Shown here: piece by piece, positions 3,668-34,059 of the stretch
Numbering within the stretch: position 1 is the first letter of the stretch
Layout of the letters: each line of letters begins with the position of its first letter
NCBI GenBank assembly: GCA_963772815.1
Contig: CAVYYV010000004.1
Span: 15,418-79,417 of the forward strand
Reading direction: 5' to 3'
Length of the DNA: 64,000 nt
Source of the DNA: an uncultured Acidimicrobiia bacterium
GTDB lineage: Bacteria > Actinomycetota > Acidimicrobiia > Spongiisociales > ZC4RG35
Program-made: the position numbers and the translations under genes
Notes under the pieces: model-generated
Told to the model about the DNA's origin: nothing
What the model saw: the letters and a program-made list of their open reading frames with translations, nothing else
Database searches by the model: none

Positions 3668-6021
3668 CTACGGACCCATGGCGCGGTGGAGGAAGGCGGC
3701 CATCTGCGCCCGGGTGACCGGATCGTTGGGACAGAACATGTCGTTGGTGGGTGGGTTGCATCCCCGCGTGACCCCGGCTTCTGCCAGTCGCTCGATGTCG
3801 GCCTCGAAGATGGAACCGTCATCGTCTCTGAACCGATCTGAGCCGGCGCCGGTGGTATAACCAAACGCCCGAACCAGAAACGCCGCCATCTGACCCCTGG
3901 TTACCGGGTCATTCGGGCAGTACTGGTCGTTGGCCGGCGGGTTGCAGCCCTTGGTCACTCCTACCGAGCCGAGCCATTCGATATCGGCCTTGAAGACCGA
4001 GCCGGAGATGTCGGTGAAACTCAACGGGGCGTCGGGGGTCAGCACCCGGCTGAGGCCCCGATGCAGGAACGCAGCCATCTGACCCCGGGTGACCGGATCA
4101 TTCGGGCAGTACTGGTCGTTGGCCGGCGGGTTGCAGCCCTTGGTGATCCCCTGTGCAGCCAGCCACTCGACGTCGCCAAAGAAGGTGTGAGTGGTCGGAA
4201 CATCGCCGAACGTGGGCGACGCGGGCAGTTCGAACACATCGGTCACATCGATGGTTACCGTCGCCACATCACTCTCGGAGCCGTTTGTCACCTCAACGGT
4301 CAGCGAGTACGAGGGCGTGGTCTCGTAATCCAACGCGGCCGCCGTCGTGATCACCCCCGTGTTCGAACCGATCGCGAACACCGCACCCCCGTTGCCGCCG
4401 GTAATCGAGTAGCTCAGTGTGCCGACGCCTGTCGCCGCAACGGTGCCGACCTCGGTGCCGGGCGCGGCGTTCTCAGCTACGGAGAACACGGCGTCGGAGA
4501 TCGCCACCGGAGGGCTGCAGGCGGCCGGTGGGCTGGTCAGCCATGGGTCGTAGTCGATGTCGACGCTGACGCTGTCACCTGACCCGGGCCCGGCGCCGGA
4601 CGGGCCGGTGCTGCTACCCCACCAGTTACTCTCGAGCGTGACTCCGGTACCTGTGCTGTTGGTTGCGCCCGCAGCGTTGTCGACGAAGCAGTTCCCGGTT
4701 GAGCCTGTACCTAGGCCGGCGCTGTCCGTGAGCGTCAAGCCGGCGGTGGCAGCACCGGAGATGCTGTTGTCCTTGACGACCGAAGACCCTGAACCGATCA
4801 GCGCGATCGCGGTTGCGTTGGGTTGCCCATCCCCGACCGGCGTTGTTCCGAACACGTTGTCGCTCACCAGGACGCCGGCGCCCGAGTCGTCGCCGCTGAT
4901 GGAGACACCTGTGGCGGCTGAGGCGAAGTAGTTGCTGCTGATCCGGTTGCCGGTGGCACCGCTCGTCAGACCGACCACCTCGATACCCGTGTCGATTGAC
5001 GCCGGAAGACCGCTCGGGGTGACGCCGAATACGTTCCCCACGATCTCGTTATCGGTGGGGTAGTAGAAGTTGGCGTCGAAGCGGACGCCGGTGCTGCCGC
5101 CGAAGAGGTTGCGCTCGAGGTCATCAGACGTTCCGTCCTCATTGGTCCCCACCAGATTGCCGACGGAGATCTGACGCATGTAGACGTAACCGGCTTCGAC
5201 CTGGCTACTTCCGTCAGCGGTGAAACCGAAGTAGTTGCCCGCCACCCAGTTGTCGTGGTTCCCGGCATCTCCATTGATGTACACGGCCGACGCGCCGGCG
5301 CCGCCGAAGACGTTCCGCTCAGCGACATCGTTGAAACCGTCGCCGTTGGTGCCGATGATCACTCCGGATGCCTCGTTCTCGAGCAGGATCTGGACCGGGA
5401 GATCGCTGGTACCGAGATGCGAATCGCCGGACGCATTGAGGCTGAAGTGGTTGCAGAAGATCTGGTGGCCGGTCCCGTTGGTGACGTAGAGCCCACTGCT
5501 GTACACCGAGACGTTGTCCGAGCCGAAGGCGAAACCGTGGATGGTGGTCGACCCGGTGGCATGGTCGACGGCCAAGGCGGTCGCGTGCTGCCCGACGAAG
5601 GATCGGTGACGATCTCCACCCTCATGTATGAGGGCTCGGTCGTGGTGGTGCACACGTTCGCTTGGGGGGCGCCGTTCTGCGGTTGGGTGGTTCCGTCGAG
5701 ATCTACCGGGTCGGTGATGGTGATCGGACCCCCGGTGAGGGTGATTCGACACACCCCACCCGGACAGGAGGCGGCGGGTATGTCGAATTCGATGATGTCG
5801 GCACCGACGTTGGCGTTGGCGGCAGCGATGGCGCCTCGCAAGCTGCAGTCGTCGGCGGCTACGGTGCAGGACGAGAGCGCCCCGTTGTCGGCGACGGTGT
5901 CGACCACGTATGTGGTCGCCGCGGCTGCAGCCGTCGCGCCAGTGATTCCCGACAGCACCCAGGCGGCAACTCCGATCGCGGCCAGCCAGAGCGCGAAACG
6001 ACGGCGGATCCTTGTTCCCAT
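3668..6021 (-). CDS. Cell-surface protein: signal peptide, right-handed parallel beta-helix repeats, cadherin-like domain, three C-terminal SLH (S-layer homology) domains. Frame break near 5590 between ORF 5359..6021 and ORF 3668..5752.
   Basis: ORF 5359..6021 begins with a signal peptide and the beta-helix N-cap 'CSLRGAIAAANA'. ORF 3668..5752 has repeated 'G.N...NVFG' beta-helix turns, a cadherin repeat ('FSVAENAAPGTEVGTV...LSYSITGGNGGAVFAIGSNTGVITTAAALDYETTPSYSLTVEVTNG') and three repeats 'F.D....F..DIEWL...GVTKGCNPP.ND.YCPNDPVTRGQMAAFL.R' that match SLH domains. Confidence 0.7.
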
Positions 6022-6460: not shown

Positions 6461-6684
6461 TGTTGGTGATGGGCGCGTTGCGGATCTGATGGCCGAACGG
6501 TTGGCGGGGTGTAGGTGTCCGCGACTTGGCTTGTGGAGAGCGGTCGGCTGCTGCTGCTTCCGCTCGACGTTGCCGACTCGGCCGAGATGGTCGTTTTGTT
6601 CTCGCGTCGAGACTGTGCACCTTCCCCGGGGCGGAGGTTCCGAATCCCTCCTTGTCTAGGGAGTGTGCCCCGTATGATCGGGGG

Positions 6685-9600
6685 ATGGTTGGTACCCCTG
6701 GGCGGCAGCTGGCGGCGGTCATGTTCACCGACATGGTCGGCTTCACCGCGCTGATGGAACAGGACGAACTGCTCGGTCTGGAGCGCCGCGACCGGTACAC
6801 GTCGGTTCTGGGGAGAGAGCATGAGGCGTTCGACGGCCGAATCGTGGCGTTTTTCGGTGACGGATCGTTGAGTATGTTCACCAACTCGGTGGATGCCGTT
6901 TTGTGCGCGATCGAGATCCAGCGCCGGCTGGGCGAAGCGCCGCAGGTTCCGGTGCGGGTTGGGATTCATGTGGGAAACGTGTTGGTCGAATCGACCGGTC
7001 TGGTTGGCGACGCGGTCAACATCGCTTCGCGGATCGAGTCGTTGGGGACGCCGGGTGCGGTGACGGTGTCGGACTCGGTGTACGACCAGGTCAAGAACCA
7101 ACCTCAGTTCGGCTTTGTGAGTCTGGGCCGGTTCTCGCTCAAGAACGTCGATCGTCCGTTCCAGATCTACGTGGTGACGGCAAGGGGTCTGCCGGCCCCC
7201 GCGGTCGGCGCCGTCTTTGACGGCAAAGGCACACAGCTTGCCGACTCGGACGGGCGCGGACCCGTTCTCCTTGATCGGGATCGAGAGCTCGACGCCATGA
7301 GCGCACTGCTGGATGGGGTGGGCTCGTCGGGCGGCAAGGTGCTGTTGGTGCGTGGCGAAGCCGGCATAGGCAAGAGCACTCTCGTTGACGCGTTCGTCGA
7401 ACGGCACGCGGACGCGGCACATGTACACATCGGTTTCTGTGACGATCTGCTGACGCCCCAGCCGCTAGGTCCCTTCTGGGACATGGCCCGTGATGAACCG
7501 TCGCTTTTGGAACCCCTGGAGATCGGTGATCGCCGAGGGCTTATGGAGGCGCTCTTGGATCTGCTTGCCCGCAAGCTTCGGCCGACGGTGCTCATCTTGG
7601 AGGACACGCAATGGGCAGACGAAGCAACCCTCGACGTGATCAAGTACGTGGGTAGGCGAACGTCCAAGACCGACGGGATGCTGATCCTCACCTATCGAGA
7701 CGGTGTGGTGGACTATGACCATCCACTCCGAGCGGTGATCGGAAGCCTTCCTCCACAGGATCTTTCGAGGATCCATCTCGATGGTCTCTCACCGGTGGCG
7801 GTAGCGGCGATGGTCGATGAATCAGAGCTCGATGCCGCCGAAGTCCTCACCCTGACCGGGGGGAATCCGCTGTTCGTCACCGAAGTGATTGCCTCGGGTA
7901 TGAGTGACGTCCCTACGTCGATTCAAGATAGTGTCCTGGCCAGAGCGGCGAGCCTCTCCGCAGAGGCACGGAGCGTGCTCGATCTCGTCTCGGTCATCCC
8001 GGGAAAGGCGGAACCGGCCCTGATCGAAGGACTAGTCGGACCGAGGCACGAGCACTTGGCCGAATGTGTCCGACGCGGTCTTCTCCGCGACGAGGACGAC
8101 GGAGTTTCCTTCAGTCACGAAGTCGTCCGACGTTCTGTCGAGGCCGCATTGACCACGGGTGCCCGTCGTGCCCTCAACGAGGCAGTGCTCACCAGACTTG
8201 CCGGGTCGGGCGACCCTTCCCGGCTGGCCCACCACGCCCGCGAGAGTGGGGACGTCGAGGCGATCATCCGATTCGTCCCCGAGGCGGCCAGGGCCGCGAT
8301 CGCCGCCGAGAGTCACCGAGAGTCACTGGCCCACTTCCGAACGCTCGAACCGTACCTGGACCGGATATCCCAAACCGACCGGGCCGCCATCGTCGACGAC
8401 TGGGCCCGCAGCGAGTGGTACCTCGACAATGCCGAATCGCTCGACATTCTCGCCAGAGCCATCGAACTGCACCGCTCCAACAATGACAAGATCGCGTTGG
8501 CAAAGACGCTGACTTTCGCGGTGCGTGTGAACGAGGTGAACGGCCGCCCGGAAGTCGCCGACGCGTGCTCCACTGAATCGGTGGCCATCCTCGAGTCGTC
8601 CCCGCCGAGCGAAGACCTAGCCTTTGCGGTCGCCCAGCAGGCCTGGCTGGCGATCATGCGTGGCGAGAGCGAACGCGCGCTCGAGCATGCCAACCGGGCA
8701 ATCGGCATCGCAGAGCAGACGGGCGCCGAGCTGGCCATGATCTACGCCCTCAACACCAGGGGCTTCCAGCTCTATGTCAACGGCGATGACACAGGTCTCG
8801 ACGTGCTGGAGGAGGCCCGGCGCCGAGCCGAAAACGCCGGCTTCCGGTCGGAGGAAGTCAGGGCGCTTCTGAACATGGCCGCTGCGGCGATCGAACTCCG
8901 TAGATTGACGCTGGCAGAGGACCTGGCGCGCAGGACCATTGCGACCGCCGTTCGATACGACGTGCAGGTCTTCGAGGCGTACGCGCGAGCTCAGCTCGCA
9001 CAGGTGCTGGAGTGGAAGGGCGACTGGGAAGCAGCCGAAGACGCCGCCACCGACGTGCTCGGCTCGCTCCCACATCACGACGTGTTCGCAGGTTGGGTGT
9101 TGGGGACACTGTGGGCACGCCGGGGCCGGCCCGACGCGCGAGCTACGCTCGATCGGGTATGGCAGATGGCCGAGACGTCCGGTGAGATGCAGAACCTGCT
9201 CCCGGCCGCTGCTGCACTCGCAGAGTACCTGTGGCTGACAGGGGAGATCGATGCCGACCTGATCGCTCGCTTCCTGGACGTGCTCGACAGAGGTCTCGAA
9301 TTCGGGTTCTCATGGGCGGGCGGAGATCTCGCCATCTGGCTGTGGAAGTTGGGTGAACTCACCGAGGCGCCGGAGGGGATCGCCGAACCGCACCGACTCC
9401 TGATAGAGGGTCGGTCTGGCGAGGCGGCCGAACGATGGGCAGCGATCGGCTGCCCCTACCAGCAAGCGATTGCCCTTGCTCACGGGGACCGCACAGTCCA
9501 ACTCGAAGCACTCGAGATGCTCGAAACCCTCGGCGCCACCGCGGTGGCGGCCAAACTCAGAAAGGCCTTGCGGGATCAGGGGGTGTCGGTACCGCGTGGC

Positions 9601-9828
9601 AGGAGCAAAGCGGCTCGGTCTCATGCAGCGGGCCTCACCGCCCGGCAAGCGGAAGTGCTCTCGCTGCTCGCCGAGGGTCTCTCGAACGTCGAGATCGCCG
9701 ACCGGCTGTTCCTGTCGCCGCGAACCGTTGAGCACCACGTCGCCGCCGTGATCAGCAAGCTCGACGTGTCGACGCGTGACGACGCCGTCGAGGTAGCCGC
9801 CGAGCAGGGTCTCTTGACCGCCCCGTAG
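6685..9828 (+). CDS. Large ATP-binding LuxR-family regulator with N-terminal class III adenylyl/guanylyl cyclase domain, AAA/NB-ARC ATPase, TPR-like helical region and C-terminal LuxR HTH
   Basis: Cyclase motifs 'AVMFTDMVGFTALME', 'VAFFGDGSLSMF', 'GIHVGNVLVE...GDAVNIASRIE'. P-loop 'VRGEAGIGKSTLV'. LuxR HTH 'LTARQAEVLSLLAEGLSNVEIADRLFLSPRTVEHHVAAVISKLDV'. Start chosen at the ATG at 6685 ('MVGTPGRQLAAVMF'). Confidence 0.85.
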   Translation: MVGTPGRQLAAVMFTDMVGFTALMEQDELLGLERRDRYTSVLGREHEAFDGRIVAFFGDGSLSMFTNSVDAVLCAIEIQRRLGEAPQVPVRVGIHVGNVLVESTGLVGDAVNIASRIESLGTPGAVTVSDSVYDQVKNQPQFGFVSLGRFSLKNVDRPFQIYVVTARGLPAPAVGAVFDGKGTQLADSDGRGPVLLDRDRELDAMSALLDGVGSSGGKVLLVRGEAGIGKSTLVDAFVERHADAAHVHIGFCDDLLTPQPLGPFWDMARDEPSLLEPLEIGDRRGLMEALLDLLARKLRPTVLILEDTQWADEATLDVIKYVGRRTSKTDGMLILTYRDGVVDYDHPLRAVIGSLPPQDLSRIHLDGLSPVAVAAMVDESELDAAEVLTLTGGNPLFVTEVIASGMSDVPTSIQDSVLARAASLSAEARSVLDLVSVIPGKAEPALIEGLVGPRHEHLAECVRRGLLRDEDDGVSFSHEVVRRSVEAALTTGARRALNEAVLTRLAGSGDPSRLAHHARESGDVEAIIRFVPEAARAAIAAESHRESLAHFRTLEPYLDRISQTDRAAIVDDWARSEWYLDNAESLDILARAIELHRSNNDKIALAKTLTFAVRVNEVNGRPEVADACSTESVAILESSPPSEDLAFAVAQQAWLAIMRGESERALEHANRAIGIAEQTGAELAMIYALNTRGFQLYVNGDDTGLDVLEEARRRAENAGFRSEEVRALLNMAAAAIELRRLTLAEDLARRTIATAVRYDVQVFEAYARAQLAQVLEWKGDWEAAEDAATDVLGSLPHHDVFAGWVLGTLWARRGRPDARATLDRVWQMAETSGEMQNLLPAAAALAEYLWLTGEIDADLIARFLDVLDRGLEFGFSWAGGDLAIWLWKLGELTEAPEGIAEPHRLLIEGRSGEAAERWAAIGCPYQQAIALAHGDRTVQLEALEMLETLGATAVAAKLRKALRDQGVSVPRGRSKAARSHAAGLTARQAEVLSLLAEGLSNVEIADRLFLSPRTVEHHVAAVISKLDVSTRDDAVEVAAEQGLLTAP

Positions 9829-9940
9829 GTGCTCCGCACAAAAAAGGGTGGGTGCAACCCCATAGTTGGGTAGGGGCCACCGACGACCTCGCGGTCACCG
9901 AACCATACGTTGGCGTCGGAACAGACGAGGAGAGGCCCAC

Positions 9941-10135
9941 ATGTTTCCGTCACAGCCACAGATCGGGCAAGACATAGCCAGAGAGCGGCAGGAACTCGCA
10001 GCACGAATGCGGCAAGCATCCACGGTGCGTCCAGTCCAGAATCGCAGACGGGCGCTGTTCGGAAAGATTCGCAGACTCGGACTGCCTTCACTGCTCAAGC
10101 GGCCCCCACGCAGCCTCGAACGGAGCGCGGGATGA
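9941..10135 (+). CDS. Hypothetical small basic protein (65 aa) with good RBS; followed by a stem-loop (GGCTCCCC...GGGGAGCC) at ~10152-10200
   Basis: ATG at 9941 preceded by 'aggagagg' 8 nt upstream. ORF 'MFPSQPQIGQDIARERQELAARMRQ...'. No recognisable family. Confidence 0.2.
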   Translation: MFPSQPQIGQDIARERQELAARMRQASTVRPVQNRRRALFGKIRRLGLPSLLKRPPRSLERSAG

Positions 10136-10339
10136 ACCACGCTCAATGAGTGCGGCTCCCCCCGCCGCCGTGACCCTGCTCCCTCCACCAGAGGGGAGCC
10201 GACAGCGGTAGCACACTGAAAATGTGCAACTGCCACCTGACGGGCCGCTGTCCAGGCTCGTGCCCGAGCTGCATTCTTGGAGCTACGACACGACTTTGTA
10301 GATTCAGTCCGACGACTCCCTACTACTTCACTGCCGCAT

Positions 10340-10362
10340 CAGTTCACGCTGCGTGCGAACTG
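10340..10362. promoter_or_regulatory. Inverted repeat CAGTTCA-N9-CGAACTG in the AT-richer region ~80 bp upstream of abiEi; candidate AbiEi autoregulatory operator
   Basis: Sequence 'cagttcacgctgcgtgcgaactg'. AbiEi antitoxins are known to bind inverted repeats in their own promoter. Confidence 0.25.
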
Positions 10363-10439
10363 CCGGCTTCTTCATGTTATGTTCAGCAGTAATCCATTAA
10401 TTCCACTCACATGGGAACTACTGGACTAGCATTGTAGCC

Positions 10440-11246
10440 GTGAAAGCAGGGATATCCAGGTCCGGTCGTGAAGAGCTGGCCGCGGTGACCAGCCGCGGTA
10501 GGCGCCTTGTCACGGTGGACGTCGTCGTCGACGGGTTGGGGCTGGGTCGTACCGAAGCGGCGAAGAAGCTGGCGCGGTGGGCTGAGCAGGGGTGGCTCCG
10601 GCGCGTTCGGCGCGGACTCTATATCCCTGTGCCCGTAGACGTGGAGCAGCCTGATCTATGGTCCGAGGATCCGCTTGTTCTGGCTAATGCAGTCTGGTCG
10701 CCGTGCTATTTCACGGGCTGGACAGCTGCCAACCACTGGGGACTGACCGAGCAGATCTTCCGAACAACTGTTGTGAAGACTTCTCGTCGCGTGAGAGCGG
10801 CGAGTCAGCGGCTCCTGGATCACGATTACCTGATCGGACATACACCCGATTCGACTATGGCTTGGGGGATGCGGACCGTGTGGCGACAGGAGCACCGGAT
10901 CAACGTGGCAGATGAATCACGGACGGTTGTCGACATCCTTGACGATCCCAGGATTGGTGGCGGCATTCGTCACGTTGCGGAGATCCTGTCCGCGTACGTG
11001 GCTGACTTCGAAGGGGACCAGGTCGTCGACTACGCGGAGCGCCTGGGCAACAGGACGGTATTCAAGAGGCTGGGTTATCTGATCGAGGCCATGGGGATTC
11101 CTGATGATGACCTTGTGGCTGCGTGCCGGAGTCGGATCTCGGGAGGTGTCTCCCTCCTTGACCCGGGAGCGTCTGACACAGGACCCCGCATAAGCGAGTG
11201 GGGTCTGCGCGCCAACGTCCGCCTTGAAGGGAACGCTTCGTTGTGA
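10440..11246 (+). CDS. abiEi: AbiEi-family antitoxin / transcriptional regulator (type IV TA, abortive infection)
   Basis: N-terminal AbiEi_4-like wHTH ('LVTVDVVVDGLGLGRTEAAKKLARWAEQGWLRRVRRGLYIP'). GTG start. 4-nt ATGA overlap with the downstream AbiEii gene. Confidence 0.8.
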   Translation: MKAGISRSGREELAAVTSRGRRLVTVDVVVDGLGLGRTEAAKKLARWAEQGWLRRVRRGLYIPVPVDVEQPDLWSEDPLVLANAVWSPCYFTGWTAANHWGLTEQIFRTTVVKTSRRVRAASQRLLDHDYLIGHTPDSTMAWGMRTVWRQEHRINVADESRTVVDILDDPRIGGGIRHVAEILSAYVADFEGDQVVDYAERLGNRTVFKRLGYLIEAMGIPDDDLVAACRSRISGGVSLLDPGASDTGPRISEWGLRANVRLEGNASL

Positions 11247-12418
11247 TTCCGCACGGTGAGATCCTCGCCCTCCGTGGCGAGTGGAATCTACGAGGCGACG
11301 TCATCGAGAAGGACTACGTGCTCGGATGGATGCTCGCCGCCATCGCCCAACAGCCCGAGCTCACGGACACATGGGTGTTCAAGGGAGGGACGTGCCTACG
11401 GAAGTGCTATTACGAGACTTATCGCTTCTCTGAGGATCTGGATTTCACAGTGATCGAGGGAGGACCGGAGACTCCCGAAGACCTGCTCCCAATATTCGCT
11501 GGAGTAGCCGAACGCCTTCTTGATCAGTGCGGGCTCGAGATCTTCGTCGATCAGAAGACCTTTGTACGACAAAGGAACCGCCGAGGAAACCCAACCACGC
11601 AAGGTCGGGTCGCCTTCAGAGGCCCGAGCAATCCACCGAGCCTGCCCAAACTCAAGATCGACCTCACGAGCGACGAGGCGTTCACCGGCCCGCGTCACAG
11701 CCGGCAGGTGCTCCACCCATACAGCGACGCCGAACAGTTGACCTGGGAGGTGACCGCCTACTCCCTACCTGAGTTGCTGGCCGAGAAGATCAGGGCGCTC
11801 GCCGAACGGTGCAGACCACGCGATCTCTACGACGTCGTGAACGTTCATCGACACCCCGATCTCTTGGGAGACCCAGACCCTGTCCGAGCAGGCCTCAAGG
11901 AGAAGTGCGTGTACGTCGGGATTGACGTCCCGACCGCGGACTCAATTGCCGACTCTTCTTTCAAGGATGAACTCGAACAGGAATGGGAGAACATGCTGGG
12001 ACATCAGTTGCCTCATCTTCCTCCCGTAGCCGAGTTCTGGAACTCGCTGAATAGTGCCTTCGGCTGGCTGGAAGGAGAACCCATGGCGGTTCTCGACCGA
12101 GCACCCTTTGATGCCTCGATAGACGCCGCGTGGGTGCCGCCCCGAGCAATGACCACTTGGCGCCGCGCGGCTCCGCTCGAACTGATCCGATTCGCCGGGG
12201 CAAACAGACTGAGAGTTGAGATCGACTACCGACCGGCCGAGGGGCGCTGGGAGCCGCGTGTTGTCGAGCCGTTGTCGTTTCGGATGACTCGCGTGGGACA
12301 CCTGCTCCTCTACGTCATCAACGATCGTGGCCTACTCCGCAGCTATCGGGTGGACAGAATTGCCGGAATCCGTGTGCTCGATGAGAGCTTTACTCCGCGT
12401 TACTTTGTCGAATTCTGA
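11243..12418 (+). CDS. abiEii: AbiEii/AbiGii-family nucleotidyltransferase toxin (DUF1814) with a ~110-aa C-terminal WYL-like domain extension
   Basis: NTase motif 'VFKGGTCLRKCYYETYRFSEDLDFTV'. C-terminus 'LRVEIDYRPAEGRWEPRVVEPLSFRMTRVGHLLLYVINDRGLLRSYRVDRIAGIRVLDESFTPRY' follows the WYL-domain pattern (V.I.Y...R.V.P..L...WYL.A....R.FRLDRI), with WYL replaced by LLY. Confidence 0.8.
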   Translation: MIPHGEILALRGEWNLRGDVIEKDYVLGWMLAAIAQQPELTDTWVFKGGTCLRKCYYETYRFSEDLDFTVIEGGPETPEDLLPIFAGVAERLLDQCGLEIFVDQKTFVRQRNRRGNPTTQGRVAFRGPSNPPSLPKLKIDLTSDEAFTGPRHSRQVLHPYSDAEQLTWEVTAYSLPELLAEKIRALAERCRPRDLYDVVNVHRHPDLLGDPDPVRAGLKEKCVYVGIDVPTADSIADSSFKDELEQEWENMLGHQLPHLPPVAEFWNSLNSAFGWLEGEPMAVLDRAPFDASIDAAWVPPRAMTTWRRAAPLELIRFAGANRLRVEIDYRPAEGRWEPRVVEPLSFRMTRVGHLLLYVINDRGLLRSYRVDRIAGIRVLDESFTPRYFVEF

Positions 12419-12634: not shown

Positions 12635-12973
12635 TCAGTAGTTCAGGAGCGTCTTGATGACGCTGGCGACTTGTTGGCTGGTGTGGGCGTCGACGCTGCC
12701 GAGTCGATGTACGAGCCGGGCCCGGTTGACCGATCGAATCAGTTCACACTGGACGTAGCTGATCTCGTCGAGCCCGGTGTCTGGGGTCGGTTCGACTTTG
12801 ATGTGGAGGGACAGCCCACGTGGGGTGGTTGTCAGTGGGGTGACGATCACAAACGGGAAGTCCGGTCCGAAGGTTTCGGGCGGACCTACTACCAGGGCGG
12901 GCCGATGAGCTGCCGGCTCTCCAGGGTATGGCTCGCCGAAGTCGACGAGCCATAGGTCATCGATCGATGCCAT
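12635..12973 (-). CDS. mazF: PemK/MazF-family type II toxin (mRNA interferase)
   Basis: 'WLVDFGEPYPGEPAAHRPALVVGPPETFGPDFPFVIVTPLTTTPRG' matches the MazF/Kid fold signature. Overlaps the upstream antitoxin ORF by 17 nt. Confidence 0.8.
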   Translation of the reverse strand: MASIDDLWLVDFGEPYPGEPAAHRPALVVGPPETFGPDFPFVIVTPLTTTPRGLSLHIKVEPTPDTGLDEISYVQCELIRSVNRARLVHRLGSVDAHTSQQVASVIKTLLNY

Positions 12974-13202
12974 CCGCTACCGAGGTTGCGTCCGCTTCGG
13001 CCAGGTATGCCTTCCAGGCGTCTTGGTCGGTCCTGAGTTCTGCCAGTTCGGCAGCCACCTGGTGAGCGAATCGCTGCCTACCGAGTGCCTCGGTGGCGTC
13101 GCGGATGGTTTCGATGAGCGTCCGTCCTGACTCTCTGCTGAGCGCCTGTAGCCGAGCGTGGGTTTGGGTGTCGACCCGGATGGTGGTGGTAGCCATGAAC
13201 AC
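12957..13202 (-). CDS. Ribbon-helix-helix (CopG/ParD-like) antitoxin partnered with the MazF-like toxin
   Basis: 81 aa; N-terminal 'TTIRVDTQTHARLQALSRESGRTLIETIRDA' is RHH-like. Sits immediately upstream of, and overlaps, the toxin gene. Confidence 0.65.
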   Translation of the reverse strand: MFMATTTIRVDTQTHARLQALSRESGRTLIETIRDATEALGRQRFAHQVAAELAELRTDQDAWKAYLAEADATSVADGIDR

Positions 13203-15217: not shown

Positions 15218-16717
15218 TCAGGGCTGTCGGTTCGAGATGCGGAATACCGGGATTTGCTCGGACACCCCCTTCATGGCGCCTGAGACCGGCTCGACGTCAT
15301 AGCCGGCGAGCAGTTGGCCCACACCCTCGGCGTCCAGGATGTCCTGGGTGATGAGGATCTCGCTTGCCCCGGCCAGTTGCTGGGTGCGGGCCGCGATGTT
15401 GACGTTCTGTCCGAAGTAGTCGAGTCGCTCGTTGAGGGTGACGGCTACCGAGTGACCTCTGTGCACTCCCACTTTCAGCTCCATCGGCCGCTCGCGGGCG
15501 GCGGTCTCGTTTCGGATACTGTCCACCATGTCGACGGCTGCCGACACGGCGTGGGTGGGTCTCAGGAAGGTGGCCATCACCGCGTCACCGATGGTCTTCA
15601 CCAAGACGCCGTGGTGTCTCGACACTGCTTTGTCGAGAATGTCGAAGTGGACTCTCACCAGGTTGTAGGCGGTGACGTCGCCTATCTCGTCGTACATTGC
15701 GGTCGAGTCCTTGAGGTCGGTGAACAGGTAGGTCAGGTCTGTGACCGAAAGGCCTTCACCCTCGGGCGGCGCCTCCATTCGAAACAGCCGACGAAACAGG
15801 GGCGTATTGAGGAGTCGTTTCGCCGACAGCGGACCCGAGTTCTCAACGTTGGCGACCACCTCCGCTATGAAGGTCGACGGATACTTGACTATCCAGACGG
15901 GCCATCTCCAGGACGATTCGTTCCTGCAGGTGAGATGAATGCCGCCGGGTCCGACGGCATGGACTGCGGGGAGTAGCAGGGTGCCGATCGGTGTCTCGAT
16001 CGGCACCTTCGAGGTAGGGATTCCCGGGTGGCCCAGCCCGTCGTCATCGAAGGTCAACACGAAGTGCCTGGTGATCTTCTCCTCGTCGCGCAGGACGGCG
16101 AAAGCGATCGACGTCGTCCAGTCACGCACGAGGAGCGTTCCCTCCTCGAGATCGACGTCGAATTCGGCGCGTTCGGCGGGCTCGACATATTGGAGAGCCG
16201 CCGTGACGTCGCGCAGGAGATCCACGGTGGCCATGTCACCGACATTGGTCCGTGCCGCCCGGCTGTAGTGAAAGTCGAACAGCAGCTGTTCGAGGGTCAA
16301 CTCATCGGGGTGATGAAAGACGATCTCCCGGACAACGGGATCGATCGTGAAGACGACCTGGATGACGTCGTCGAGCCTGGATTGGTTTTCCATGTCACAT
16401 AGGGTGCAGTGGAAGTGTGGGTCGACCTCCTCGAGGGCGCGGAAACTCTTGAAGACGTTGCCGCACGACACACAGACGATGTTCCATTCCATCCGGAACA
16501 GGCCGGCGGTGGTCGCCTGGAGGAACAGATCGATCACCGCGGACTGGTCGAGTCCCCTCTCGTCGGCGTATCGAATCGGGTTGACCCTGAACACTTCGAC
16601 ATCCGACGACGTGCCGACGAAGTCACCCAGGCCTTCGACAAGAGCAGCATCGGCACCCGAGGCGATGATTCTCTCAAGACACGAGAGGAGTGATGACTCG
16701 TCGAGTGAAACGCCCAA
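15218..16717 (-). CDS. Class III adenylate/guanylate cyclase with N-terminal Cys-rich (zinc-ribbon-like) regulatory domain
   Basis: C-terminal cyclase domain ('LTYLFTDLKDSTAMYDEIGDV...VKTIGDAVMATF...GVHRGHSVAV...GQNVNIAARTQQLA'). N-terminal domain with 'CVSCGNVF...HCTLCDMEN'. Confidence 0.8.
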   Translation of the reverse strand: MGVSLDESSLLSCLERIIASGADAALVEGLGDFVGTSSDVEVFRVNPIRYADERGLDQSAVIDLFLQATTAGLFRMEWNIVCVSCGNVFKSFRALEEVDPHFHCTLCDMENQSRLDDVIQVVFTIDPVVREIVFHHPDELTLEQLLFDFHYSRAARTNVGDMATVDLLRDVTAALQYVEPAERAEFDVDLEEGTLLVRDWTTSIAFAVLRDEEKITRHFVLTFDDDGLGHPGIPTSKVPIETPIGTLLLPAVHAVGPGGIHLTCRNESSWRWPVWIVKYPSTFIAEVVANVENSGPLSAKRLLNTPLFRRLFRMEAPPEGEGLSVTDLTYLFTDLKDSTAMYDEIGDVTAYNLVRVHFDILDKAVSRHHGVLVKTIGDAVMATFLRPTHAVSAAVDMVDSIRNETAARERPMELKVGVHRGHSVAVTLNERLDYFGQNVNIAARTQQLAGASEILITQDILDAEGVGQLLAGYDVEPVSGAMKGVSEQIPVFRISNRQP

Positions 16718-28779: not shown

Positions 28780-29631
28780 TTAGAGAGTCTGAAGGATCGC
28801 GACCGTGGCTCGGGCTCGGTCCTTCCAGACGTTCGTGATTTGGCTGAACGCTTGAGTTGAGCCCAGCCTCACTGCCTGACGGTCCGCTTCGATAGCGAGC
28901 CATTCCAGGACGGGCTGGGGAGATTGGTCGAGGAGGGATCTGAGAGCGTAGGCTCGCTCGCCGATGCGGATCCCTGCGTTGGTGGTTGCGGCGGCGCGAT
29001 TGAGGTCGGCGTGAGTGAGGATGATGCCGCTGCGAACGGGGGCGAGGAGGTAGGTGATGAGGTCGTCGGGCCCTTGTGGGAGTGAAGGTGGATCGGCCAG
29101 GTGGCGGGATGGTTGGTGAGGGCCCGGGTCGGTATGGAGGGCCGACCGGATGACTTCGATGATGAGTTGCGCCCAGGCCGGGTAGGGGGTAGGGGCGATG
29201 TTCTCGACTCGGGTGAGGTACGGAATCAGCCACGGGGCGAGGTGTTCGTAGACGAGGGTGTGTTGGGCGTGTAGGAGGAGACGGCGTCGGGCCGGGTCGC
29301 CGTTCGCGGCGGGGTCGAGAAGCGCGGCCCATAGCCCCAGGAGGGCGGCGAGATGGTCGGGTTCGGGGGGTGGGGTGAATCCGGTGGCGTGCCAGAATCC
29401 GGCTATTCGGTCTCTGGCTTGGCCACCGATCTTGCCGTCGGGGTCGAGGTAGATGGAGGCGTAGGGGGGAAGCTGGCGGATGAACAGCTCGGTGTGATCG
29501 GCCGGGTCAGGGACTGGAAGCCCCAACAGGGCTGCAATGCGTTCCGACTCTGGCGTGGGTCGTTCGCAGAGAACGGCCAGGGCGCGGATCAGTTCGGCCT
29601 GCTCAGTGGTGGGGGATTGTGTATAGGTCAC
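28780..29631 (-). CDS. TorD/DmsD-family redox-enzyme maturation chaperone
   Basis: 'FIRQLPPYASIYLDPDG' and 'EPDHLAALLGLWAALL' resemble TorD-family PPYxS and E(P/Q)xDH motifs. Lies immediately downstream of the molybdoenzyme catalytic subunit. Confidence 0.6.
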   Translation of the reverse strand: MTYTQSPTTEQAELIRALAVLCERPTPESERIAALLGLPVPDPADHTELFIRQLPPYASIYLDPDGKIGGQARDRIAGFWHATGFTPPPEPDHLAALLGLWAALLDPAANGDPARRRLLLHAQHTLVYEHLAPWLIPYLTRVENIAPTPYPAWAQLIIEVIRSALHTDPGPHQPSRHLADPPSLPQGPDDLITYLLAPVRSGIILTHADLNRAAATTNAGIRIGERAYALRSLLDQSPQPVLEWLAIEADRQAVRLGSTQAFSQITNVWKDRARATVAILQTL

Positions 29632-32513
29632 GGGAGGGTTTGAGGGGGCGGAGAAACCAGTAGGGGCGGCGGGTTCCGTCGGGGGAGGTCCCGTCGGCGG
29701 GTCGGGTCAGGGACAGCCAACGCTGGTAGGCGGCTCGGGAACGGGCCGTGTCGACGGCGATGTCGCCGTGGCTGTCGCCAGGTTGGGCTTTGGTGACCCG
29801 GACGGCCTGGTGCCAGCAGTGCTGCCCGGAGATGGGGTCGGGTTGGACGGGGAAGGTGAGGTTTTGGTGGACGCCGACCTCGGTCCACCAGATGCGGCTG
29901 GTGTCGGGGTCGGCCGACGGGAACGGCCCGATACCGGCCTGGCGGTCGAGTTGCCAGGCGTCGGCCTGGTGTTGGAGCGAGACGGTGGCCATGGCTTGGC
30001 GTTGGCCTTGGTCGGTGAGCTTCCAGCGTCCCATGTGATGCGAGCAGGCCACCACACCGGGTCGGATCCCTTCGGTGACCCAGGCTTTGACCACGAAGTG
30101 GCCGATTTCGGTTTCGACCCGGACCAGGTCCCCAGTGGCGACGTCGAGACGGGAGGCGTCGGTGGGGTGGATCCAGAGCGGGTTGGTGTGGGCGATCTCG
30201 TCCAGCCATTTGGCGTTGGCGGAGCGGGTGTGGATCTGGGTGGGGAGCCGGAAGGTGGAGATGAGCGGCATCTGACCGGCCTCCAGGTTATTCGGGTGGA
30301 TGTGGCTGCGGATGTAGCCGGGGAGGGCATGTTCTGACCATCCCCAGTCGACCATGGTGGCCGAGTAGAACTCCAACTTCCCCGACGGGGTGGGGAATCC
30401 CGCTAGGACCTGCCCGTCGACTTTCACTCCGACCGGTCGCCGTCCCTCCGAGTCGGGGTCGGGGCTGGATTGGGGAACCACGTTGGGCCTGGCCGGTTTG
30501 GGCGCCGCGGTGTAGACCCGCCCGAAGGGGTCCTCGCCCGGGTCGGCCAACTCGTCGTTGCCCACCGGCTGCTCGTGGACGGCTCCAACGCCTTTGGTCA
30601 CCTCGAACGCGCCGTAGCGTCGCATGTACTGGAGCGGAGTGAGTCCTTCGGCGGCGGCGGCTTCGGGCAGACCGGGGACCGAGTTCTCGAACATCCACCC
30701 GTAGTACTCGTCCACGCCCAGCTTGGTGCCCGGATCGGCCTTGGATTCGTAGTACTGGCGGATACCCAAAGAGCCGTCGGGGTCGATCCGCCAGGACAAC
30801 TCGATCCAGAACTCGTTCTCTTCCCACACCTCACCGGGGTTGACCTGGCGGGTGTCGGTGATCTCCTCGCCGGCCCGTTCACGGGCGGCGCGCAGCACCG
30901 GCTGGCGGAACCCGATCCACTGCCCGTCATACTGCTCGTAGGACGCAACGTCGTGACGTTCCGACGATAGGCCCATGGGCAGCACATAGTCGGCGAAATA
31001 GGCCGTCTCCGACCAGGTGGGGGTGAGCGCCACATGCAAGCCGACCTTTGAGGGGTCGGTCAGCATCTCGATCCAACTGAACCCGTCGGGGTTGGTCCAC
31101 ACCGGGTTGTACACCCGGGAGAAGTAGACGTCGATGCTCCCCCGCCCCTCGCCCACGAAATGGGGCAGCAGGAAGGACAGCTCATGCATGGCCAGCGGAT
31201 ACTCCAGCGGCCAGGTGAGCTCGTTCCACACCGGCGGATGAGGAGGGGAGTGGATCGGACGGGGTACGAACTTGTTCCAGGCGTTGGGATAGGTGCCGCC
31301 CGGTGTGGCCACCGCCCCCATCAGGGCGTTGAGCAGAAACAGGGTGCGCGACACCTGCCATCCGCCCAGGTTCCCCGCCGCCGCCGACCGCCAATTGTGA
31401 GTCGACAAACGAGTACCCGCCCCCGCCACCAGCTCGGCGACCTCCACGAAGCACGTCGGCGGCGATGCCCGACTCGGCCGAGGCGAACTCGAAAGTGAAC
31501 TCGGCGTACAAGCCCGCCAGAACCTCCTCGAACGCTTCGAACGTGGAAGGAAGGTCGGGATGCTGGGCGGCCAGGTACCGGTCCCAGTTCCACCAGCGGC
31601 GCACGAACTCACGGTTGTAACGGCCGGTCTGAATGAGATGGTTGGCGATGGCCAGGTTGATGGCCGCCTCCGACCCCGGATAAGGCGACAGCCAATGATC
31701 GGCATGGGTGGCGGTGTTCGACAGCCGGGTGTCCAACACCACCAGCTTGGCGCCCCGACGACGGGCGTCGGTGATGCGCTGAGCATGAGGATTGAAATAG
31801 TGGCCCGCCTCCAAATGAGCCGAGATCAGATAGATCACCTCGGCGTTGGCGTGGTCGGGGCTGGGCCGATCCAGACCCATCCACAACTCATAACCCACCC
31901 GCGATCCCGACGAGCACACGTTGGTGTGCGAGTTGTGCCCATCGATACCCCAGGAAGCCATCACCCGCTCGGTGAAACCATCCTCACCCGGCCGACCCAC
32001 GTGATACATGACCTGATTGCGGCGCCCCTCGCTCAACGCGGCCCGGATCCTGGCGGCGATGTCGTCCAGAGCCTCGTCCCAATCCACCTGCACCCACCGG
32101 CCCTCACCCCGGGCCCCGACCCGCTTCAACGGATACAGGATCCGATCCGGGTCGGTGACCTGGTTCACCACCGCCGGGCCCTTGGCGCAGTTGCGTCCCC
32201 TCGAACCCGGATGCTCGGGATTGCCCTCGAACTTGCGCACCTGCAACGTGTCCCGATCCACATACGCCAACAGGCCACAAGCCGACTCACAGTTGAAACA
32301 CGTCGTAGGCACCAACGCATAACGCTTCTCGACCCGCTCCGGCCACGACCGCGAATCCAACTCCACCCAATCGTCCCAACGCTCCCGGGGAGGAAACGAC
32401 GCCAAATGGACCCGCGACGGACCCGGATAGAACGTCTCCCCACGGGCCTCCACCTCGGCCCGAGCCGCCGACACCAACCCACCCAACTCTCCCAGGCGAT
32501 CCGTCACCACCAT
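29603..32513 (-). CDS. Molybdopterin (Mo-bisPGD) oxidoreductase catalytic subunit, DMSO-reductase/CISM family, no Tat signal; frame break near 31440 joins ORF 31182..32567 to ORF 29603..31786
   Basis: N-terminal FS0 cluster motif 'CFNCESACGLLAYVD'. MopB-like body ('KLVVLDTRLSNTATHADHWL', 'LNALMGAVATPGGTYP'). C-terminal molydop-binding beta-barrel ('WIHPTDASRLDVATGDLVRVETEIGHFVVKAWVTEGIRPGVVA'). Confidence 0.75.
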
Positions 32514-32520
32514 CTCCTTC

Positions 32521-34059
32521 TCATGCCAGCGGCACCGCCTGTCCCGACTGGACATAGGCATGCTCATAAGACAACAACCCGACCAGGGCGAAGGGAGCCG
32601 CCCACACCCCCATCCAGGGCGCCAGAACCGCCACCGCCATCAACCCCACCGACACCCATAAGAACCAGGCGTACCGGCCCCGGGTCATCTCCCACACCGC
32701 GGCATGGGCATGGGCGGTGCCATGCGGCAGAACAACCTCCCCCCACACCAACAACAGATGCACCAACGCCGCCCCACCCAACAGCCAACCCAAAGCCTCA
32801 GTGGCGGCCGAATCGACGAAGGCGTCGACCATCAACAACCCCGCCGCTCCCCCCAAAACCGCCTGCACCGCGATATGAGGAGGCAACAGCGGCGACTGCC
32901 ACAAATCCCGAGCCTTGGACTGGGCAAACAGAAACGCCGTGTACACCGCCGCCATCACCGACAACGGCAAACCCGCCACCGCCAAACCCTGGCGCAAACC
33001 CACCCAATCGACCATCCCCGACAACACCTGGGCGGCCAGCACCGCCCCGTAAGCCAGGATGATCACCGCCCCCCGCACCAACCAACTGCGCCACTGGGGC
33101 TGGGTGAACAACAACAAGAACCGCCCCGGATGCTTCAAATCCGCCACCAGAATCACCCCGGTTGCTGCCAAGAACACCAACCCCACCACCGGCGCCGCCC
33201 ACACGAACAGATCCGCCGACCAACCCAGGAACCCCGTCAACACCAACAGCAAAGCCACCAGATAGGCCCCGGCCGCCAACGACTTCGTCCACGTGTACAG
33301 GCTGACCGGCCAACCCCACGGCGCTCGATGCGGCACGTCATAAGACACCAGCGCCGCCGCCGACGAATTCGCCCGTCCAGCACGCATACCGCTCCCCACC
33401 CCCGGACCCTGCCCCGCCCACGCATACAGACCCCCCTCCGGCCGGCGAGCCGACAAAGGATCCAACGTCGACTGATGAGCCCCCACATAGAACAACTTGG
33501 GTCGGGTCTCCTTCTCCGGGCGACGCACCGAAACCGGCTTGCGACCCACCACCCCGGCCACCGCAGACGACGGATCGTTCACATCCCCCACCAGGATCGC
33601 CTCCGTCGGGCACACCACCACACAGGCCGGCTCCAACCCCACATCCAACCTGTGCGCGCAGAAGTTGCACTTCTCCGCCGAGTGATCCTCGGGATTGATA
33701 AAGATCGCGTCATAAGGACAAGCCGCCATACACGCCTTGCACCCGATACAGACCCGCTTGTCGAAATCCACGATCCCATCCGAACGAGCGAACATGGCCG
33801 CCGTCGGACACGCCGCCACACACGGAGCATCCTCACACTGATTACAACGAGTCACCTGAAACGCCCGCCGCACCTGGGGAAACACCCCCACATCCACCGA
33901 CTTCACATAAGTGCGAGTCACCCCCAACGGCACCTCATTCTCCGACTTACACGCCGTCGTACACGCATGACAACCAATACACACCGACTGATCGATCACC
34001 TTCACCCAACCGGCAGGCTTCGATTCAGCAATCTGGGAGTGGCGGAGAGGTACGTTCAT
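32521..34059 (-). CDS. Fused 4Fe-4S ferredoxin-type electron-transfer subunit (DmsB/PsrB-like, four Cys clusters) and NrfD/PsrC-like polytopic membrane anchor
   Basis: Four 'C..C..C...CP' motifs ('CIGCHACTTAC', 'CNQCEDAPCVAACP', 'CIGCKACMAACP', 'CNFCAHRL...CVVVCP') followed by ~8 TM helices. Confidence 0.8.
   Translation of the reverse strand: MNVPLRHSQIAESKPAGWVKVIDQSVCIGCHACTTACKSENEVPLGVTRTYVKSVDVGVFPQVRRAFQVTRCNQCEDAPCVAACPTAAMFARSDGIVDFDKRVCIGCKACMAACPYDAIFINPEDHSAEKCNFCAHRLDVGLEPACVVVCPTEAILVGDVNDPSSAVAGVVGRKPVSVRRPEKETRPKLFYVGAHQSTLDPLSARRPEGGLYAWAGQGPGVGSGMRAGRANSSAAALVSYDVPHRAPWGWPVSLYTWTKSLAAGAYLVALLLVLTGFLGWSADLFVWAAPVVGLVFLAATGVILVADLKHPGRFLLLFTQPQWRSWLVRGAVIILAYGAVLAAQVLSGMVDWVGLRQGLAVAGLPLSVMAAVYTAFLFAQSKARDLWQSPLLPPHIAVQAVLGGAAGLLMVDAFVDSAATEALGWLLGGAALVHLLLVWGEVVLPHGTAHAHAAVWEMTRGRYAWFLWVSVGLMAVAVLAPWMGVWAAPFALVGLLSYEHAYVQSGQAVPLA

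Follow-up and report, generated by a model that had tools for sequence, protein, structure and literature searches.

What might a WYL domain be doing at the C-terminus of an AbiEii nucleotidyltransferase toxin, and is such a fusion new? The question is raised by a two-gene locus in a stretch of 64,000 nucleotides of contig CAVYYV010000004.1 from an uncultured Acidimicrobiia bacterium (the whole stretch is hereafter called the window), where the gene of a 391-amino-acid (aa) toxin directly follows that of an AbiEi-like antitoxin. A first-pass annotation of the window had read the toxin as an AbiEii nucleotidyltransferase with a C-terminal WYL domain, and had noted that AbiEii toxins are normally shorter, at about 280-300 aa; the domain call is borne out here by sequence, fold and conservation, and the studied canonical AbiEii and MenT toxins are indeed without such a domain. 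The AbiEii-WYL fusion is widespread and catalogued, and was listed in the literature in 2014; the window locus is one more member. The locus itself is ordinary, and its value lies in pointing to a mechanism rather than in discovery. The features on which the following argument draws are these.

11243..12418, + strand: abiEii-WYL toxin gene, an open reading frame (ORF) with a GTG start, 391 aa plus stop (Pfam; PADLOC AbiEii PDLC02317)
11243..12028, + strand: DUF1814/AbiEii nucleotidyltransferase core, residues 1-262, with motifs I-IV
11429..11431, + strand: codon of Ser63, predicted phospho-acceptor for antitoxin-induced autophosphorylation (hidden Markov model (HMM) alignment, invariance)
12029..12172, + strand: conserved linker, residues 263-310, one helix and ordered coil, with conserved aromatic residues W266, F273, W275, W297 and W306
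12173..12415, + strand: WYL (Sm-like) domain, residues 311-391, with a helix (312-320), five beta-strands (323-382) and a conserved tail F383-x-P385-R-Y-x-V-E390-F
10440..11246, + strand: abiEi antitoxin gene, 268 aa, with an N-terminal winged-helix AbiEi_4 domain and an AbiEi C-terminal domain
11243..11246, + strand: 4-nt GTGA overlap of the antitoxin TGA stop and the toxin GTG start, read directly from the sequence

Architecture of the toxin

Residues 31-264 of the toxin match the Pfam family AbiEii (PF08843) at 122.6 bits against a cutoff of 22.5, and residues 312-378 match WYL (PF13280) at 28.2 bits against a cutoff of 21.8, the latter alignment running over model positions 3-70 of 70; both domains are thus above their gathering scores. 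The AbiEii profile of PADLOC (PDLC02317, 396 positions) spans residues 1-390 of the toxin (422.8 bits, E-value 3.2e-127), and the WYL profile of the same collection matches residues 292-386 (E-value 2.3e-7). The chain ends nine residues past the WYL barrel, and a public protein (P0001) is 100% identical to it.

For structure prediction, 37 full-length homologs with 60-87% identity were aligned, and the alignment was used for an AlphaFold2 model of the toxin, which has a mean predicted local distance difference test (pLDDT) score of 87.2, a predicted template modelling (pTM) score of 0.86 and no segment below a pLDDT of 50. Residues 312-382 are modelled with the Sm-like topology, in which five beta-strands come after a single helix, and the fold matches of this domain are DriD, PafBC, BrxR, CapW, Hfq and WYL1. 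The C-terminal stretch of about 80 residues therefore almost certainly adopts the WYL (Sm-like) fold. In the linker, block pLDDT values are 80-92, with a dip to 64 at residues 301-310; together with the high pTM score, this ordered linker suggests that the nucleotidyltransferase and WYL domains are held in a fixed mutual arrangement in the model.

The enzyme core seems to be intact. Four motifs have been described in AbiEii/DUF1814 proteins, each of which is required for toxicity (Dy et al. 2014, PMC3985639), and all four are found in the toxin and are invariant in the 37 homologs: motif I, F46-K-G48-G49; motif II, R61 and D65-L-D67, with the family-specific spacing of 15 residues after motif I; motif III, K182-I-R-A185-L-A-E-R189; and motif IV, R193-D194-L-Y-D197. 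The predicted fold of the core is likewise MenT/AbiEii-like. Ser63, which is also invariant in the 37 homologs, lies two residues before the first catalytic Asp, and HMM alignment pairs the segment rfSedlDf with RSTVDIDF of AbiEii, which contains T65, and with RFSTDLDF of MenT4. It has been reported that Thr65 of Streptococcus agalactiae AbiEii autophosphorylates upon the binding of AbiEi, which silences the toxin (bioRxiv 10.64898/2026.01.19.700257). As motifs I-IV are intact and Ser63 aligns with Thr65 of AbiEii, the toxin looks catalytically competent, and it would be open to neutralisation by phosphorylation of the AbiEii type.

The C-terminal domain is at least as well kept as the core. 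In the alignment of the 37 homologs, the mean pairwise identity of the WYL domain, 70.4%, exceeds that of the nucleotidyltransferase core (65.9%) and that of the linker (46.8%), and the domain is thus under strong constraint. Across 64 WYL regions (that of the window and 63 from representatives of a library clustered at 50% identity), the conserved positions are mainly basic or aromatic, namely R316, R322, Y329, R339, R347, R366 (or K), Y368 (or F), R369, R372 (or K), R386 and Y387. In an HMM alignment to PafBC, Y329 falls on the Tyr of strand beta1, and R366-S-Y368-R369 falls on the R-V-F-R of the RVFRLSR patch; these residues are kept in 37 (Y329), 36 (R366), 37 (Y368) and 33 (R369) of the 37 homologs. 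PafBC depends for its function on the beta1 Tyr/His, on the Phe and both Arg of the beta4/beta5 loop and on the Tyr of the WYL triplet (bioRxiv 10.1101/612655). Their counterparts in DriD, Y168, R176, R178, Y192, R204 and R207, contact single-stranded DNA (ssDNA; PMC9186387), and CapW binds ssDNA in the same manner as DriD (PMC11662680); the ligand residues of these two proteins were placed on the toxin indirectly, by way of the alignment to PafBC and of the motif in common. Searched against PDB sequences, the WYL profile yields a weak match to PafBC alone (E-value 0.011). Because Y329 and R366-S-Y368-R369 align with the PafBC patch, the ligand is expected to be nucleic-acid-like, and a short piece of single-stranded nucleic acid, or else a related nucleotide, is probably what the barrel binds.

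The triplet that gave the family its name has diverged in the toxin: Trp-Tyr-Leu is replaced by L354-L355-L356, and Leu-Leu-Leu is also the consensus of the toxin family. Degenerate triplets are known from accepted members, i.e. NYL in DriD (PMC9186387) and WHV in CapW (PMC11662680), so the LLL triplet is no bar to membership. The assignment of the domain to the WYL family rests on its Pfam score, its fold and its ligand patch, with the triplet being degenerate.

A two-gene cassette and its distribution

The upstream gene encodes an antitoxin with a Pfam AbiEi_4 match of 31.7 bits (cutoff 25) and an AbiEi_1 match of 20.3 bits, which is below the cutoff of 22.2, and the PADLOC AbiEi profile PDLC02271 covers its residues 8-257 with an E-value of 2.6e-79. 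Its score against the NCBIfam AbiEi equivalog, 15.2, is far under the cutoff of 150, so it is taken to belong to a divergent AbiEi subfamily; a comparison with PDB sequences gave no meaningful match. The GTGA overlap, which makes translational coupling of the two genes probable, recurs as a 4-nt overlap in the gene calls of homologous loci (L001-L006). Moreover, of 80 related loci taken from species representatives, 73 have enough upstream DNA, and in all 73 the gene immediately upstream of that of the toxin encodes an AbiEi homolog (51-71% identity). As every AbiEii feature of sequence and fold that was tested is present in the toxin, and as a cognate AbiEi accompanies it, we are highly confident that the genes at 10440-11246 and 11243-12418 form an AbiE module.

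The survey of relatives showed how common the architecture is. Both Pfam domains are found in 113 of the 120 best clusters at 90% identity, essentially all of them about 391 aa long. The species representatives of GTDB contain 489 loci that encode relatives, and the best 80 of these were examined; all 80 cover toxin residues 1-391 with 55-74% identity, so that the recurrence of the same fusion in homologs, raised as a check with the first annotation, is confirmed on both counts. The library clustered at 50% identity holds 3,997 related representatives at an E-value of 1e-3 or less and 312 at 1e-30 or less. The best 150 of them were classed with family-specific HMMs: 24 are full-length AbiEii-WYL proteins, 14 are AbiEii-WYL proteins with an extra tail of 50-90 aa, 25 are unfused AbiEii proteins (272-296 aa, 38-46% identity), 10 have another C-terminus and 77 are fragments. 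A neighbour-joining (NJ) tree of the enzyme core is star-like, interleaves fused and unfused forms and is without support values, and no conclusion on gain or loss of the WYL domain is drawn from it for these reasons.

Thirteen of the 14 tailed proteins carry a CxxC...H...C zinc-ribbon-like motif in the extra tail, P0250 being without it. In this sub-family the tail past the WYL domain is about 70-90 aa long, and the motif in it has the C2HC form Y-V-x-x-C-x-x-C-x-K-x-F ... H-K ... C-x-G-R, and no Pfam family matches this tail at threshold. This sub-family comprises P0168, P0170-P0172, P0174, P0178, P0180, P0193, P0196 and P0199-P0202, with the fragments P0159, P0164 and P0166, and one member of it (WP_283054706.1, 474 aa) is encoded at 4001-5425 of a locus (L091) on a plasmid of Rhizobium sp. 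CB3171.

The closest relatives among the species representatives, with 66-74% identity, come from metagenome-assembled genomes (MAGs) of Acidimicrobiia and other Actinomycetota. The best 80 of the 489 loci belong mostly to Acidimicrobiia, Thermoleophilia and Solirubrobacterales, and also include MAGs labelled Dormibacterota, Chloroflexota, Myxococcota, Gemmatimonadaceae, Bacillota and Burkholderiales. One identical 5,915-bp contig with the cassette (L017, L018) has been binned into two MAGs of different phyla, one of Gemmatimonadaceae and one of Gaiella, and further copies (L039, L070) are found in bins labelled as a Micrarchaeaceae archaeon and as Saccharibacteria. These cross-phylum bins look like binning artefacts or mobile DNA, and the phylum range of the cassette is therefore to be read with care. 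In addition, full-length relatives with 43-44% identity are encoded on plasmids of cultured Rhizobium and on one Thiodictyon plasmid.

The idea that the 391-aa ORF itself arose by mis-assembly, or by read-through that fused two separate genes, for which the short "stand-alone WYL" proteins in the databases speak and nothing else, is refuted by the same uninterrupted architecture in all of the best 80 loci, which span several phyla, by its presence on cultured-Rhizobium plasmids and by the origin of such short proteins, and we give it practically no credence. When the C-terminal 130 aa were used as the query, only short proteins of the same family were retrieved, most of which start at one internal Met of the full-length toxin; free-standing WYL proteins of this kind (89-141 aa) were considered as candidates, and the two that were checked on their contigs (P0149, P0145) proved to be remnants of toxin genes interrupted by a frameshift or a stop. 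At least a share of the "stand-alone WYL" proteins thus goes back to toxin pseudogene remnants. In one disrupted lineage (L007/L008, 3111-4267), which is syntenic with the intact locus L001, the frameshift lies near residue 131; in the other (L009/L010, 3248-4426), an in-frame stop after residue 196 leaves ORFs of 196 aa and 141 aa. Beside both, gene calling still gives an antitoxin of full length, as is expected where the disrupted gene is a toxic one.

It had been held in the first-pass annotation that the fusion was uncharacterised. As far as experimental characterisation in the literature that could be searched goes, the claim stands, but the architecture as such is not new: Makarova et al. 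2014 (PMC4012209) list "WYL + AbiGII-like nucleotidyltransferase (DUF1814)" and suggest a role in the regulation of the AbiG system, PADLOC has a profile for it, and NCBI names its members "WYL domain-containing protein" or "AbiEii/AbiGii toxin family protein".

When the neighbouring genes were clustered over the 80 loci, no third gene (a phosphatase or a cyclase, for example) proved to be conserved; the largest cluster of neighbours, an integrase-like ORF, occurs at 6 of the 80 loci. The surroundings of the cassette are unrelated from genome to genome, being for example genes of aromatic catabolism, or fatty-acid oxidation genes beside a type I restriction system, and on a conjugative Rhizobium symbiosis plasmid the cassette stands beside HipA and SIR2 genes. 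The antitoxin and toxin pair thus behaves as a self-contained mobile two-gene cassette.

In the window, the cassette is set among ordinary metabolic and regulatory chromosomal genes and is convergent with a second toxin-antitoxin (TA) pair directly downstream, whose two genes, 12635-12973 (- strand) and 12957-13202 (- strand), overlap by 17 nt. The former encodes a PemK/MazF-like toxin (Pfam, 68.6 bits) and is preceded by the latter, a small ORF of 80 aa with weak, sub-cutoff matches of the ribbon-helix-helix type in Pfam; PADLOC has no model for either gene. On either side of the TA cluster lies a class III adenylate/guanylate cyclase gene: that at 6526-9828 (+ strand) encodes a 1,100-aa cyclase-AAA_16-LuxR regulator, and that at 15218-16717 (- strand) a DUF5939-cyclase. 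Upstream of abiEi there is a non-coding gap of about 610 nt (9829-10439), in which 10153-10161 and 10193-10201 form a perfect hairpin of 9 bp and a stretch richer in AT immediately precedes the GTG start. The DNA upstream of 10440 showed short repeats at chance level only, no inverted repeats of the AbiEi type and no promoter-like site on the + strand in a sigma-70 scan, which may not fit this host; a terminator scan around the operon gave nothing above chance, and the window contains no tRNA gene and no Rfam family, and no integration site was identified in it. Farther away, the catalytic subunit of a molybdopterin oxidoreductase at 29603-32567 (- strand) appears to be divided between two ORFs in different frames, with an overlap of about 600 nt (31182-32567, with Fe4S4 and Molybdopterin domains, and 29603-31786, with Molydop_binding); this points to a frameshift, to a pseudogene or to an error of sequencing. 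The adjoining Fer4-NrfD fusion gene at 32521-34059 (- strand) coincides with the strongest GC and AT skew of the window.

Possible roles of the WYL barrel

By homology with MenT1, MenT3, MenT4 and S. agalactiae AbiEii, the nucleotidyltransferase would extend tRNAs by nucleotides at their 3' acceptor ends and thereby halt translation. AbiEi would repress the operon through its winged-helix domain and would neutralise the toxin by binding it and inducing the autophosphorylation of Ser63, as the alignment to T65 of AbiEii suggests. The WYL barrel, for its part, might bind short ssDNA or RNA made in phage replication or upon DNA damage, and this binding might allosterically license the nucleotidyltransferase, for example by opposing the self-phosphorylation that AbiEi induces, in which case an infection sensor and a killing enzyme would reside on one polypeptide. 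Such a sensor role for the WYL domain, rather than that of a substrate clamp, is the reading that we favour, at somewhat less than even chances; we do so because the WYL domains studied in defence, those of CapW and BrxR, are signal receptors, and because AbiE toxins are without a known trigger. The enzyme, moreover, appears to be independent of the WYL domain, as close unfused relatives exist. The specific switch, by which phage-derived ssDNA or RNA on the barrel would block or reverse Ser63 autophosphorylation and so turn on tRNA nucleotidylation, is a tentative proposal.

Several points weigh against a sensor. The Tyr of the triplet that contacts phosphate in DriD is a Leu (L355) in the toxin, and the residues of the WCX or dimer domains that complete the pocket in DriD and CapW have no counterpart in it. 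In the PIF1 helicase of Thermotoga elfii, the enzyme-fused WYL domain is an accessory ssDNA-binding module (bioRxiv 10.1101/163188), and the expected substrate of the toxin, the 3' tail of tRNA, is itself single-stranded. The AbiE module of S. agalactiae, the best studied of its kind, gave no protection against 32 coliphages, and a defence role should therefore not be assumed for every AbiE module. Finally, our literature search found no experimental study of an AbiEii-WYL fusion.

Some of these points lead to the best surviving alternative, in which the barrel, joined by the zinc-ribbon-like tail in one sub-family, is a clamp or specificity module for the RNA substrate. It would grip the target RNA, at its single-stranded 3' end or at another part, and would raise the affinity or shift the choice of the RNAs that are modified, with no sensing of infection. 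PIF1 is the precedent, being the one enzyme-WYL fusion that has been studied biochemically; WYL/Sm folds are known to bind single-stranded nucleic acid over 3-4 nt regardless of the bases (PMC9186387), the substrates of MenT/AbiEii enzymes are tRNA 3' ends, with the choice of target varying among homologs, and a composite protein of fixed architecture is suggested by the high pTM score and by a linker that is both ordered and conserved. The additional C2HC tail in 14 of the 150 representatives (with the motif in 13) would also be a typical accretion of a nucleic-acid-binding protein. However, the unfused relatives with 38-46% identity imply that the core recognises its substrate alone, and the WYL domains studied in defence contexts act as regulators; a clamp is possible, and we consider it doubtful.

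It is also conceivable that the barrel has lost ligand binding and has become a protein-protein module for dimerisation, AbiEi docking or stability, the cassette then being mainly a selfish addiction or stress TA system. The loss of the eponymous Tyr at L355, the interleaving of fused and unfused forms in the NJ tree of the core, which hints at a dispensable domain, and the ordinary metabolic and regulatory gene context with its second TA pair would fit such a role. Against this, the basic and aromatic surface (R316, R322, Y329, R339, R347, R366, Y368, R369 and R372) is kept across the representatives at 50% identity, which is the signature of a nucleic-acid or nucleotide site and not of a hydrophobic interface, and the WYL domain is more conserved than the catalytic core; a role in protein-protein contacts alone is thus improbable.

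A small nucleotide, for instance an alarmone or a cyclic di- or oligonucleotide, might instead be the ligand and would couple the toxin to second-messenger signalling. Perception of cyclic di-GMP by a WYL regulator has been reported (PMC11880434), "nucleotides or nucleic acid fragments" were proposed as WYL ligands by Makarova et al. 2014 (PMC4012209), and with the WCX domain missing the binding site is unlike that of the ssDNA sensors. Nevertheless, no cyclase or other signal-making gene is conserved beside the cassette at the 80 loci, the two class III cyclases of the window are not conserved neighbours of it in other genomes, and the closest structural matches are all ssDNA binders, all of which leaves this ligand with little probability.

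If the sensor reading is true, an AbiE-type TA module carries its own trigger receptor on the toxin chain, and we would learn how at least one AbiE subfamily is activated, with the zinc-ribbon-tailed sub-family as a second variant of the receptor. The large and well-conserved WYL-fused subfamily offers a tractable handle on how toxins of the AbiE/MenAT type are released from their antitoxins during phage attack, and cultured carriers of the fused toxin exist in the form of the Rhizobium plasmids.

Comparison with known systems

The closest counterpart is the architecture WYL + DUF1814 of Makarova et al. 2014, which is also the PADLOC entry PDLC02317: the architecture is the same, the profile matches from end to end and nothing substantive differs, and neither entry gives a mechanism or an experiment for the fusion. 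With the AbiE systems of S. agalactiae and Lactococcus lactis (type IV, recently reclassified as type VII), the window locus shares the antitoxin-then-toxin operon with overlapping genes, the antitoxin with a winged helix and a C-terminal domain, and the DUF1814 toxin, in which motifs I-IV are present and a Ser or Thr phospho-acceptor precedes the first catalytic Asp by two residues. On the other hand, the toxin of the window is 391 aa long instead of 287 aa, the extra part being the linker and the WYL domain, and the antitoxin has 268 aa instead of about 195 aa; the sequence similarity to the solved AbiEii is remote (profile E-value 4e-4). The MenT toxins of the MenAT systems of Mycobacterium tuberculosis (MenT3/TglT Rv1045, MenT4 Rv2826c and MenT1) are single-domain proteins of 195-292 aa in the solved chains, are without WYL and have 13-20% identity to the window toxin, and the WYL domain is not mentioned in the recent mechanistic papers on MenAT and AbiE.

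The factors DriD, PafBC, CapW and BrxR combine WYL with a winged helix-turn-helix (wHTH) and a WCX domain. Membership of the toxin in this wHTH-WYL-WCX class was considered and rejected, since its N-terminal part is a nucleotidyltransferase and it has neither a wHTH nor a WCX domain; it also differs from these factors in having no dimer domain and in its LLL triplet, and its output would be the control of an enzyme on the same chain rather than of transcription. Other enzymes, too, are associated with WYL domains, i.e. the T. elfii PIF1 helicase-WYL fusion, Cas3-WYL and the accessory protein WYL1 of Cas13d; here, in contrast, the partner enzyme is a DUF1814 tRNA nucleotidyltransferase toxin, and it stands in a TA pair.

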